This document shows positions 1-2,528 of a stretch of DNA of 3,786 bases, piece after piece (the stretch's first letter is position 1; each line of letters begins with the position of its first letter). A model generated the notes under the pieces. The model had not been told where the DNA came from and ran no database searches. It saw nothing but the letters and a program-made list of their open reading frames with translations. The DNA is taken from the IMG/VR virus record IMGVR_UViG_2548876938_000007; one strand, given 5' to 3'. Both the position numbers and the translations under genes were made by a program. Origin of the DNA: a virus (lineage: Duplodnaviria; Heunggongvirae; Uroviricota; Caudoviricetes).

Positions 1-996
1 TTATGGACGCATTATGGACATTCCTGACACCGGGTTAAGAGTCACAGCATCTTGTAAGAAATCCGGTGCAAAGTGTGCGTAGGTCATAGTTTGCTGAATG
101 TTAGAATGACCCAGGATGCGCTGCAATGTGATTATGTTACCTCCATTCATTATAAAATGTGTGGCAAATGTATGCCTCAAAACATGCACTGCCTGTCCGT
201 CAGGTAAATCGGGTTTTACTTCCCTGAGAGCGTTACGCACTTTGTAGTAACTGGCATTAAAAAGCCTGCCTGAATTTTTGGTCTTGATCCGTTTAATCAG
301 ATCCTGCGAAACGGGAATTGTCCTGCGCTTTCCGTTTTTAGTTTTCATAAACGTAACCATCTGGTTAATGATGTGTTCAGCTTTTAAATTAGACACTTCA
401 CTCCAGCGTCCACCAGTAGAAAGGCAGACCAGAGTTGCATTTAATTCATCACCATCGAGCATGGATAACAGCCGCGTAATCTCTTCACTGGACAAAAAAG
501 CCATTTCCGTAACAGCTTCACGTAACCGCTTAACCTCACGGAACGGGTTATGAGAGTGGTATTCACCGGCGTCAATTAACTTGGTGAACATACCGCTCAT
601 TATTGCCAGATGACGATTTACGCTGGCTGGTTTTAGACCATCGTTCATCATTACAACGCGATAATCAGTTATCGTTTTCTTTGTTAGCTGGTCAGCTCTG
701 GACACTCCCATTTCTGCAAATTTGGCGATTATTGTCGTTAAACGCCCCCGTTCAATATCCCCCCGCTCATGCGATTTTCCGTGATATATCCACCATCGGC
801 CTAACAACTCGGTAAGAGTTCGGCGATCGGCTGGTTTCTCTATCCACTCTTTGTTGTGGTAGTTAACCAGAACATGACGCTCGAATGCTTGAGCTTCACC
901 TTTAGTTTTAAATTTCCGCCTGATACGTTTTCCATCTGCACCCTGCGGCCTGACGTCCACTTCATAACGACCATCATCGAGCTTTTTAATAGACAT
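1..996 (-). CDS. int: Tyrosine-type site-specific integrase (phage integrase family), 331 aa
   Basis: Complete ORF on the minus strand: ATG at 996..994, stop TAA at 3..1. SD-like GGAGGG (complement of 1002..1007) lies 4 nt upstream of the ATG. The C-terminal region carries the tyrosine recombinase signature (VLRHTFATHF ... LGHSNIQQTMTYAHF with the presumed catalytic Tyr). N-terminus MSIKKLDDGRYEVDVRP resembles P2/186-type integrases. Confidence 0.93.
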   Translation of the reverse strand: MSIKKLDDGRYEVDVRPQGADGKRIRRKFKTKGEAQAFERHVLVNYHNKEWIEKPADRRTLTELLGRWWIYHGKSHERGDIERGRLTTIIAKFAEMGVSRADQLTKKTITDYRVVMMNDGLKPASVNRHLAIMSGMFTKLIDAGEYHSHNPFREVKRLREAVTEMAFLSSEEITRLLSMLDGDELNATLVCLSTGGRWSEVSNLKAEHIINQMVTFMKTKNGKRRTIPVSQDLIKRIKTKNSGRLFNASYYKVRNALREVKPDLPDGQAVHVLRHTFATHFIMNGGNIITLQRILGHSNIQQTMTYAHFAPDFLQDAVTLNPVSGMSIMRP

Positions 997-1089
997 AAAG
1001 CCCTCCGATGATGCTGTTTACTGCTACTACTTGAAAATTAATGCAATTTTCTTTCGTACATTTACTGCACACATATGCTGAATAAATCG

Positions 1090-1389
1090 TCAGCCAGTCT
1101 TTTGGTCTGAGTGGTGCAAGGTTGTTGAGTCTTGCCCAATGTGTGCGAGAGCTGGGGCTATTTGACCAGCTGCGGGATCAGTTTCATCAAACATGAACCA
1201 ATCACGGTATTTACGGAATCTTGGATGTTTTAGAAGTCGCACCACTGCATCATGTGAAATAGATGATTTCCCATTTTCGTACCCTACATACGTAACGTAA
1301 TTAATACCTGTCATTTCAGCTACTTCCTTCTTCTTGAGCCGTTCAGACTCACGGATAAGTTTTAGCTTTTCACGAATCTCAATTGACAT
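1090..1389 (-). CDS. C: Immunity repressor, P2 C-like, 99 aa with N-terminal helix-turn-helix
   Basis: ORF on minus strand, ATG at 1389..1387, stop TGA at 1092..1090. Length is exactly 99 aa, as in P2 repressor C. HTH-like segment KKEVAEMTGINYVTYVGYENGK. C-terminal GQIAPALAHIGQ...SDQKTG matches my recollection of the P2 C C-terminus. Position immediately upstream of int and divergent from cox is as in P2. Confidence 0.85.
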   Translation of the reverse strand: MSIEIREKLKLIRESERLKKKEVAEMTGINYVTYVGYENGKSSISHDAVVRLLKHPRFRKYRDWFMFDETDPAAGQIAPALAHIGQDSTTLHHSDQKTG

Positions 1390-1493
1390 AATGAATCAGA
1401 TCTCTTATTTTTAATCCGTTGTGATATTCCACATCTAACTCTAGTCAACTCCAACTAGCTTTAGTTAGTGGGGCCAATTAGGAGAATAGCAAA
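1383..1493. promoter_or_regulatory. Lysis-lysogeny switch region: candidate early promoter (rightward), candidate repressor promoter (leftward) and operator-like repeats
   Basis: Rightward candidate: -35 TTGACA at 1383..1388 (overlapping the repressor start codon), 17-nt spacer, -10 TATTTT at 1406..1411. Leftward candidate: -35 TTGACT (complement of 1443..1448), 16-nt spacer, -10 TATCAC (complement of 1421..1426), a weak -10. Repeats: AACTC at 1437..1441 and 1447..1451 (10 bp apart), AACTAG at 1453..1458, and an imperfect inverted repeat CTAACTCTAG (1435..1444) / CTAAAGTTAG (1459..1468). Exact promoter and operator assignments are not resolvable by eye. Confidence 0.5.
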
Positions 1494-1850
1494 ATGAATG
1501 TCGGATCTGAAATTTCTGACGAGACAAGACAAGAACTCTCCGTTCTCACAAAAGCAAAGCGTGATTCCGTTAAATTGGCGGCGGCACCATCAGACTTGCT
1601 GTCGAAAGAAGGTTTTGCGCTTTACATCGGCAAGACACCACGAGCGGTGGCTGAAATGGCGAAAGCAGGAAAGCTGCCAGCCTTTTACATGACAGACCCA
1701 TTAAAGCCGGGAGGTCATGCTGAGTTATGGATTAATCGGCGTGAGTGGGACAAGTACGCAGCACAGCTAGTCGAAGAAGCTCCATCAGAATGGCACGACT
1801 GGAAAAATCGCATTAGTTACAGCAAATCAAGACATGGCCGTGCGGCTTAA
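1494..1850 (+). CDS. cox: Cox-like excisionase / early-promoter regulator, 118 aa
   Basis: ATG at 1494 is preceded by AGGAGA (1480..1485) with 8-nt spacing; stop TAA at 1848..1850. The central segment FALYIGKTPRAVAEMAKAGKLPAFYMTDP...AELWINRREW resembles the P2 Cox HTH-like core as I recall it. It is the first gene of the rightward operon, divergent from the repressor. About 27 aa longer at the N-terminus than P2 Cox (91 aa). Confidence 0.75.
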   Translation: MNVGSEISDETRQELSVLTKAKRDSVKLAAAPSDLLSKEGFALYIGKTPRAVAEMAKAGKLPAFYMTDPLKPGGHAELWINRREWDKYAAQLVEEAPSEWHDWKNRISYSKSRHGRAA

Positions 1851-2031: not shown

Positions 2032-2528
2032 CAGTGATGACGCTCAATCTCGTTGAAAAACAGCCAGCAGCTATGCGCCGGATAATTGGTAAGCATCTGG
2101 CCGTCCCTCGCTGGCAGGAGACATGCGATTATTATAATCAGATGATGGAACGCGAACGGCTAACGGTTTGCTTCCATGCGCAGTTAAAACAGCGTCACGC
2201 AACGATGCGTTTTGAAGAAATGAACGACGTCGAACGTGAACGACTGGTTTGTGCAATTGATGAATTGCGTGGCGCATTCTCAAAACGCCGTCAGGTCGGC
2301 GCAAGTGAGTATGCATATATTAGTTTTTTAACAGTCAGTCAGCGTCGTACTTTATTTATGCATGCGGGATTGACAGAAAAAGAATTCAATCAGCCGTACT
2401 GGCGAATTAATGAAGAATCATGTTACTGGCGTGATGCTTTATTCCGTGCATTACGTGAATTATTCAGTCTGTTTGAGTATGCACCGACAATTCTGACGTC
2501 GGTAAAACCAGAGCAATATCTGCATTAA
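2028..2528 (+). CDS. B: Replication gene B-like protein, 166 aa (assignment by synteny and length)
   Basis: ORF track gives 2022..2528 (168 aa), but GGAGGG at 2015..2020 is only 1 nt from ATG 2022 and 7 nt from ATG 2028, so 2028 is the likelier start. It overlaps the upstream stop as ATGA. 166 aa equals the size of P2 gpB and the position between cox and the small-ORF cluster is the same. I cannot confirm sequence similarity from memory. Confidence 0.65.
   Translation: MTVMTLNLVEKQPAAMRRIIGKHLAVPRWQETCDYYNQMMERERLTVCFHAQLKQRHATMRFEEMNDVERERLVCAIDELRGAFSKRRQVGASEYAYISFLTVSQRRTLFMHAGLTEKEFNQPYWRINEESCYWRDALFRALRELFSLFEYAPTILTSVKPEQYLH

Follow-up and report, generated by a model that had tools for sequence, protein, structure and literature searches.

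The window analysed here, a 3,786-base stretch of DNA from IMG/VR virus record IMGVR_UViG_2548876938_000007 which, judged by its sequence, is the early-control region (int–C–cox–B) of a P2-like (Peduovirus) prophage, raises the question of which part of the short spacer between the divergent C repressor and cox genes carries immunity specificity, and what the repeats in this spacer are. An earlier reading made from the sequence alone (referred to here as the sequence-only reading) had taken the AACT/CTAG repeats and an inverted CTAACT/AGTTAG pair as the repressor (and Cox) operators which set immunity. We find instead that the repeat cluster is most likely an array of Cox boxes with a consensus different from that of P2, and that immunity specificity is more probably carried by positions 1383–1418 together with the N-terminal domain of C, some 40 bp to the left of the cluster.

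That this is a C/Cox switch of the P2 family, as had been suggested, is borne out by both regulators. The C gene (1090–1389, minus strand) is an open reading frame for a 99-amino acid (aa) helix-turn-helix repressor of the Pfam HTH_3 type which matches the P2 C structures 2XCJ/2L49 over its full length (E 2e-25), and the divergent cox gene (1494–1850, plus strand) encodes a 118-aa protein with a winged-helix core and an N-terminal extension of about 30 residues (Pfam PF10743 Phage_Cox, 5.4e-30; P2 Cox structure 4LHF, E 6e-7). A small helix-turn-helix repressor homologous to P2 C is thus found diverging from a Cox-family winged-helix protein at the head of the early operon. The C start codon (CAT on the plus strand) is at 1387–1389 and the cox ATG at 1494, leaving the 104-bp spacer described earlier.

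All of the motifs listed in the sequence-only reading are present in this spacer, and the repeats (AACTC at 1437 and 1447, AACTAG at 1453) are real and periodic. When the AACTC, AACTAG and AGTTAG motifs are placed in register they form three 10-bp units, CTCTAGTCAA, CTCCAACTAG and CTTTAGTTAG, at 1439–1468, and within these we recognise candidate Cox box 1 (CTCTAGTC, 1439–1446), box 2 (CTCCAACT, 1449–1456) and box 3 (CTTTAGTT, 1459–1466), all on the plus strand, with starts exactly 10 bp apart and the consensus CTCTAGWT. Box 1 is at a position equivalent to the P2 cox boxes, box 2 can be followed in alignments where it reads CTCTAACT in Escherichia coli strain 10 and CTCTAAGT in Citrobacter, and the AGTT of box 3 is invariant in our six-sequence alignment A4 (E. 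coli, Citrobacter and Erwinia). No other 40 bp of the window has as many AACT/AGTT as the cluster, with four in 1431–1470 compared with 0.36 expected per 40 bp (4.7% of Markov-1 simulations attain such a maximum somewhere), and it contains two of the three CTAG sites in the window. The CTAACT/AGTTAG inverted repeat (1435–1440 and 1463–1468) exists as reported; in window-only searches neither this 6-nt match nor the short direct repeats exceed chance when taken alone, and since strain 10 (AGTTTG) and Citrobacter no longer have the inverted repeat, we rejected it as an operator.

The box motif is retained well beyond the window. Phased arrays were found 25–55 nt 5' of cox in every related switch examined, including those with spacers that do not align, as illustrated by the units of pro483 (CTCTAGATGG and CTCCAGTTGG), YpM_117 (CTCTAAATCG and CTCTAGATCG), AR_0006 (CTTCAAATAG and CTCTGATTGA), locus L026 (CGCTAATTGA, CTCTAACTGG and CTCTAATTGG) and Citrobacter (CGCTAAGCGA, CTCTAAGTAG and CTCTAGTT). 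The 10-bp phased motif is common to at least eight repressor classes which have a nearly identical Cox DNA-binding core. Using a weight matrix made from the boxes of other phages only, with no window box included, we scored 7,558 positions in the window and found boxes 1, 2 and 3 at ranks 5, 7 and 1, respectively. The 10-bp phased triple scored 26.0, a value reached by none of 2,000 simulated sequences, for which the maxima averaged 4.9 (standard deviation 3.2). A matrix built from the switch boxes of other phages was likewise applied to both strands of the whole 29,237-bp pro483 genome, where two phased triples were far above background, one on the P' side of attP (29.4) and the other in its own switch (22.9), with the next unrelated match scoring 8.3; the switch and att-side arrays were again the top two in scans of the Enterobacter, Salmonella and Citrobacter loci.

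These scans bear on the simplest alternative, in which the repeats arose by chance in an AT-rich spacer or are functionless inherited filler. Each motif is short, two-copy short repeats often arise by chance, and the window-only statistics are marginal (P ~0.05), but neither the score of the phased triple nor the fact that the two standout loci in the pro483 genome are both expected Cox targets fits with this, and the phasing and consensus persist across spacers which otherwise do not align. We consider this explanation to be highly improbable.

The second location of the array is beside int at the attachment site. The int gene (1–996, minus strand, identified as an open reading frame and by Pfam) has at its 3' end (window 1–20) two Int arm-type repeats, and just outside its stop codon, in both the lysogen and phage pro483, is the array CTTCAATTGG, CTCTAGTTAA and CTCTGGTT (2664–2689 of L008 from E. 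coli S65EC, to the left of window position 1, and 77–106 of pro483 locus L031). This array runs directly into the arm-type repeats TTATGGACGCATTATGGACA (window 1–20); it has these Int arm sites on one side and, on the other, the att core located in the pflA 5' end. The repeats themselves, TATGGAC at 2–8 and 13–19, are 11 bp apart, overlap the int stop codon, and fit the P2-type Int arm consensus (tgTGGaCa; PMC3448106); the P2 record puts the P' arm likewise over the 3' end of int, and with P' arm repeats at 1–20 the window therefore begins inside attL. In the P2 record, the interval that separates the attP core from the P' arm is annotated as the Cox-binding region, and we predict that the att-side array is the Cox-binding region for excision. 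The box variants co-vary between attL and the switch (CTCTAAGTAGCTCT in Citrobacter), and a metagenome contig with a more diverged Cox has GCTAAG/GCTAAC units at both sites. Multiple boxes spaced by one turn therefore appear both in the switch and on the att P' side, with a consensus unlike that of P2, and since at least eight repressor classes have the motif, which recurs at attL/attP, the repeats are most likely Cox boxes and not immunity determinants.

We also note that in the lysogen the original pflA ATG reads AAG, and the annotated pflA is 19 codons longer, reading in from phage DNA. In the Yersinia phage vB_YpM_117, which is of the plague-typing type (L016, ~735–760), the att core ACCAATAACTG is apparently fused to the internal int sequence GCATTAAAAAGCCTGCC (window ~255); this junction would drop the P' arm, the attP boxes and the 3' end of int, and suggests an integration-blocking deletion. 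Finally, two copies of AACCAGAG are found 29 bp apart at window 2506–2513 and 2535–2542, flanking the B stop codon (2526–2528). The reverse complement of this sequence is CTCTGGTT, the third attL box, and as single Cox-box matches the two copies score within the window's top four, without the 10-bp phasing.

The presence of boxes at both sites could also be explained if they were core or upstream elements of the leftward promoter Pc, or sites for host architectural proteins (IHF, Fis), with the int-side copies reflecting a shared need for a host factor. A −10-like TAGAGT does lie inside a box in the window (1443–1438), strain 10, Citrobacter, the YpM_117 class, L026 and L028, and host IHF does bind P2 attP according to the P2 record. 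However, Erwinia, Pectobacterium, Enterobacter, Serratia and pro483 lack the embedded −10 or have it in spoiled form, and the copy in box 2 of the window reads TGGAGT. The P2 IHF site is on the opposite side of the core, we saw no match to the IHF consensus in 1431–1470 when the sequence was read by eye, and direct repeats phased by exactly one turn have been reported as characteristic of Cox and Apl (PMC3936717, PMC7498355). This makes a promoter or host-factor role for the boxes improbable in our assessment.

The left part of the spacer has a different character. The TTGACA −35 overlapping the repressor start codon and its rightward −10 had been proposed earlier, and the sequence comparison supports both. 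The TTGACA hexamer (1383–1388, plus strand) and the TATTTT hexamer (1406–1411, plus strand), separated by a 17-bp spacer, give 10/12 matches and are the sole promoter-like match of the scan in 1000–1900. In the P2 GenBank record the early promoter Pe has a −35 which overlaps the C start codon and a −10 at +17 to +22, with operators O1 and O2 flanking the −10, and the offsets of the window elements from the C start are the same as those of P2 Pe, base for base (score 13.3 vs 13.6 in P2). This geometry is also kept in 17/17 related switches examined, and the −10 is invariant within the repressor class. Because they occupy the same position relative to the C start as the annotated P2 promoter, we take the two hexamers to be Pe, firing towards cox, by positional homology.

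The C protein itself is 48% identical to P2 C overall and 40.6% identical in the DNA-binding half, for which no phage record exceeds 70.3% identity, and in this respect the repressor does differ from the characterised types, as had been thought possible. We compared the repressor classes of the window, YpM_117/MS1494, pro483/LR-24 and AR_0006, plus three more in Scandinavium and Pseudescherichia. These have in common the C-terminal half of C and essentially the same Cox winged-helix core, and differ in C residues 1–55, the spacer, and the first ~30 Cox residues. The C gene is a mosaic (window 1093–1230 vs 1231–1389) in which codons 1–55 are class-specific and codons ~55–99 differ little or not at all between E. 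coli prophages that belong to different immunity classes, and the Citrobacter and Pectobacterium members of the window's own class have a different C-terminal tail; this mosaicism places an exchange boundary inside the gene.

Conservation within the window's class separates the two parts of the spacer. In a set of ten same-class sequences, from E. coli, Citrobacter (two), Erwinia psidii, Pectobacterium atrosepticum, Enterobacter, Serratia, Salmonella and a metagenome contig, the recognition helix INYVTYVGYENGKSS is identical in all ten (seven genera plus the contig), and TTGACAT, ATCAGATCTC (1395–1404) and TATTTTT (1406–1412) are invariant in 10/10. The whole of 1382–1415 is invariant in alignment A4, and the flanks diverge, with about one-quarter of columns differing in the C coding flank and nearly half in the right half of the spacer. 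The box sequences drift among prophages which have an identical C recognition helix, and 1383–1412 stays constant. Between the window and strain 10, which have identical C proteins, all six spacer substitutions fall in 1429–1472.

These comparisons speak against the earlier proposal that the AACT/CTAG and CTAACT/AGTTAG motifs are operators that set immunity and that Pc is formed by TTGACT/TATCAC. The motifs exist, AACT/AGTT are nowhere denser in the window than in the cluster, and the score of TTGACT–16–TATCAC (6.5) is near that of the real P2 Pc (6.8). Nonetheless, the box motif crosses repressor classes and recurs at attL/attP, and the boxes, the TTGACT and the inverted repeat all vary within the class despite the identical C recognition helix; all six spacer differences from strain 10 fall in 1429–1472 without any change in C. 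Furthermore, the C proteins of P2, P2 Hy dis and WPhi bind direct repeats which flank the −10 or −35 of Pe (PMC1904268). We therefore regard this model as improbable, and its immunity claim is not supported.

Immunity specificity is more probably a property of 1383–1418 and the C N-terminal domain, as outlined above. The C proteins of the P2 family bind two direct repeats around Pe, the sequence and spacing of which depend on the class (PMC1904268, PMC2995052). The window has a candidate half-site O1, TGAATCAG (1392–1399), whose ATCAG core belongs to the invariant block at 1395–1404 and whose position is equivalent to that of P2 O1, and a candidate half-site O2, TTAATCCG (1411–1418), 19 bp away across the Pe −10. 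O2 is partly conserved in the class (AATTCG, AATCAA and AATCCA), and the same +5/+24 geometry gives matches of at least 6/8 in pro483, AR_0006 and L026. Half-site repeats summed over eight classes exceed shuffles (9/5,000), mainly owing to P2 and AR_0006. The GATCTC of this block probably contributes to the C ribosome-binding region as well. We consider the C operator to be localised rather than defined, probably as half-sites with an ATCAG core on either side of the Pe −10.

Two further candidates for an immunity role were rejected. TCAGATC (1396–1402) and GATCTGA (1504–1510) form a perfect 7-nt inverted match between the O1 core and cox codons 4–6, with 101 nt between the arms, but we discarded it as a third C site: the copy in cox is kept in different repressor classes with synonymous variation (TCT/TCA Ser codon), and so is probably not a repressor site. 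The Cox N-terminal extension (~30 residues, window 1494–1590) is acidic, very poorly conserved and missing from the 91-aa P2 Cox, and we discarded it as part of the immunity system because prophages with identical C recognition helices differ greatly in this extension; the only part of it that recurs is the first ~6 residues (M-N/S-V/I-x-S-E). Separately, the annotated pro483 Cox start (MEDSK...) is probably five codons early, as the aligned GTG carries the conserved leader GGAGGATAGCAAA.

Three candidates for Pc are found in the window, and any of them would stand face-to-face with Pe. The first, on the minus strand, combines a −35 TTCAGA (1511–1506), a 17-bp spacer and an extended −10, TGCTATTCT (1491–1483), and is suggested by comparison. 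The extended −10, TGnTAT(T/C)CT, is the sole leftward element kept in 17/17 switches, where it ends 10–12 nt 5' of the cox start, and it is the top leftward match in 13/17, its distance from the cox start being fixed. The TG and TAT are invariant and the intervening base takes all four values. This conservation is confounded because the element overlaps the cox Shine-Dalgarno (and the first codons). The Shine-Dalgarno, AGGAG (1480–1484, plus strand), is 9 nt 5' of the ATG and is kept as GGAG or GAGG in nearly all relatives, and as GAAGG in Citrobacter. The second candidate is the box-embedded TAGAGT, which ends 46–48 nt 5' of cox in strain 10, Citrobacter and the YpM_117 class (the P2 TATAAT is at 38–43). 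The third is that of the sequence-only reading, TTGACT (1448–1443), a 16-bp spacer and TATCAC (1426–1421) on the minus strand; the −35 sequence is there (AGTCAA on the plus strand, 1443–1448), but it becomes TTGGCT in strain 10 and TCGCTT in Citrobacter, which have the same C N-terminal domain, the TATCAC −10 is without the conserved final T, and the pair was seen in the window alone, so that we keep it only as a weak candidate. We also rejected a promoter made of the −35 TTGGCC (1477–1472) and box 2, since the −10 in the window is TGGAGT and the spacing, as we read the sequences by eye, is 19–20 bp in Salmonella, Enterobacter and Citrobacter; the strain 10 version of this pair, TTGGCT–18–TAGAGT, scores 9.4.

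On these comparisons we tentatively favour the extended −10 at 1491–1483 as Pc, though with less than even confidence. A location elsewhere is a lesser but real possibility, the box-embedded TAGAGT seems unlikely, and TTGACT/TATCAC is very doubtful. A second group of larger Cox proteins has been described by Nilsson et al. 2011 (PMC3448106), which the 118-aa window Cox fits. We speculate that Pc in the phages of this group may be the extended −10 (TGnTATYCT) over the cox ribosome-binding site rather than a promoter within the Cox boxes as in P2, with the CTCTAGWT boxes lying between convergent Pe and Pc promoters in a 186-like arrangement, a generalisation we hold somewhat less firmly than the assignment of Pc in the window. 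If this is true, RNA polymerase at Pc and either cox translation or read-through from Pe would compete for the same ~30 bp, and the extended −10 geometry would come with a previously undefined Cox-box consensus.

We propose that the locus is probably a bistable C/Cox switch at pflA, with Pe and the C operator which confers immunity in the left half and the Cox-box array in the right half. In the left half (1383–1418), a strong early Pe would drive cox, B and A rightward, and C would most likely bind here, at direct-repeat half-sites at about 1392–1399 and 1411–1418, so that this half and the C N-terminal domain would set immunity specificity. In the right half (1439–1466), CTCTAGTC, CTCCAACT and CTTTAGTT, one helical turn apart, would act as the nucleation array for oligomerising Cox, which would block leftward C–int transcription, either by occlusion of a box-embedded promoter as in P2 or by obstruction of a promoter just to the right. 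Cox on the similar array beside int at attL/attP would direct excision.

Several points weigh against this proposal. The Pe geometry, the homologies, the conservation and the distribution of boxes are read from the sequences, and all of the binding and repression steps we infer from them. Pc has three candidate positions, and the way in which Cox would repress it differs between them. The match between O1 and O2 is 6/8 at a spacing of 19 bp, which is at chance level in the window alone (P ~0.4), O2 is poorly conserved in Enterobacter (GGTCTC), and window-only repeat searches returned short chance-level pairs, with no 8-mer direct repeat around Pe above 6/8. Conservation of 1395–1404 is by itself no proof of an operator because this stretch must double as the C ribosome-binding region and the Pe spacer. 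The box tests are not fully independent because the training boxes were picked by eye and some of the switches are homologous by descent, and the arrays score weakly in the distant relatives Serratia and Pectobacterium.

The surroundings of the switch are those of an early-control region. Downstream of cox are B-like, DUF2732, DUF5405 and TraR/DksA-type genes, followed by the start of a replication gene. An Rfam scan of the window matched zero families. A weak terminator-like hairpin is found on the plus strand at the C stop codon (window 1077–1094, GCTGAATAAATCGTCAGC then CAGTCTTTTG), and while this is the sole such match in 1000–1900, it is no more than chance would give (0.6 expected). In complete E. 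coli genomes the integration site is the 5' end of pflA, and phiD145 and phiD160 have their attachment site at the same location (PMC3448106, Table 1). The 231-bp switch was found unchanged in 13 of 5,426 complete E. coli genomes, plus one variant at 94%. It was not found in any of 50,697 phage records, among which the most similar spacer is ~71% identical. The exact C protein is present on 489 public contigs and is carried by no sequenced phage in the same 50,697-record collection, and our scan of genome contigs returned six loci only.

These findings correct which part of the spacer carries immunity specificity, from the repeat cluster to 1383–1418 with the C N-terminal domain, in a repressor class which is widespread in prophages of at least seven genera. 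They also provide a concrete motif, CTCTAGWT with 10-bp phasing, for the larger Cox proteins, from which switch and att Cox targets in enterobacterial P2-like prophages can be predicted, and this should be of use in predicting superinfection immunity and excision control. We found no published recognition motif for the larger Cox proteins, nor a paper which defines the operators or Cox boxes of this group.

The comparison with known switches shows a mixture of features. Like P2 (class I), the window has divergent 99-aa C and cox genes, a spacer of ~100 bp and int downstream of C, a Pe −35 over the C start codon with the −10 at +17 to +22, about three phased boxes 24–55 nt 5' of cox (24–51 nt in P2) and a further array in the interval from the att core to the P' arm. 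The P2 Cox boxes start 10–11 bases apart and overlap Pc, and P2 Cox protects at least 70 nt (PMC3936717). In contrast to the window, P2 has GTTTAGAT half-sites (O1/O2) 22 bp apart, compared with ~19 bp for our candidates, and a box consensus of TTAAA(G/C)NC(A/C) rather than CTCTAGWT; the window Cox is 118 aa with the N-terminal extension and 33% identity to P2 Cox, and among the related switches no equivalent of the P2 TATAAT Pc −10 is conserved at the P2 position. As GTTTAGAT is absent from 1383–1493 and C is 48% identical, the window falls outside P2 immunity class I, C proteins being at least 95% identical within a class (PMC3448106).

To our knowledge, the Cox recognition sequence of WPhi has never been defined. 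P2 Hy dis and WPhi have two direct-repeat half-sites around Pe whose sequence, length and spacing depend on the class (8 bp/26 bp and 10 bp/34 bp; PMC1904268), a rule which the candidate half-sites of the window would also follow, and the repeat spacing is 22 bp in P2, 26 bp in P2 Hy dis and 34 bp in WPhi (PMC1904268, PMC2995052). The candidate half-sites of the window are unlike theirs in length and spacing when compared by reported values. Phage 186 has face-to-face promoters, as the window probably does, and a Cox-like recombination directionality factor, Apl, acting on direct repeats one turn apart which are found at att as well as between the promoters (PMC7498355). Should Pc be the extended −10 at 1491–1483, the window boxes would lie between both promoters as they do in 186. 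However, 186 CI is roughly double the size of C, to which it is unrelated (PMC3448106), and with its 99-aa P2-type C the window does not belong with the 186-type CI/Apl switches.

The closest named repressor is the C protein of P. atrosepticum SCRI1043, which is 89% identical overall, with three differences in residues 1–69 (manual count) and an identical recognition helix. We take the SCRI1043 prophage to be phiECA29 because it is at the same pflA-type (radical-SAM gene) site. It has the same TTGACAT...ATCAGATCTC...TATTTTT block and integration next to a pflA-type radical-SAM gene, and differs in that its Cox and the right half of its spacer have diverged. It is the different C-terminal tail that puts the 89% identity under the 95% rule of thumb, and by the recognition helix and the Pe/operator block the window would be of the phiECA29 type. 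Nilsson et al. 2011 found phiECA29 C to be unlike immunity groups I–VII and expected it to represent a new class (PMC3448106), and our exclusion of the window from classes I–VII rests on this statement. We found no experimental work on the phiECA29 switch in the literature. By sequence, then, the immunity type of the window matches the phiECA29 prophage class, and the region is an uncharacterised but ordinary member of the well-known P2-type switch family, which leaves the known picture of these switches unchanged.

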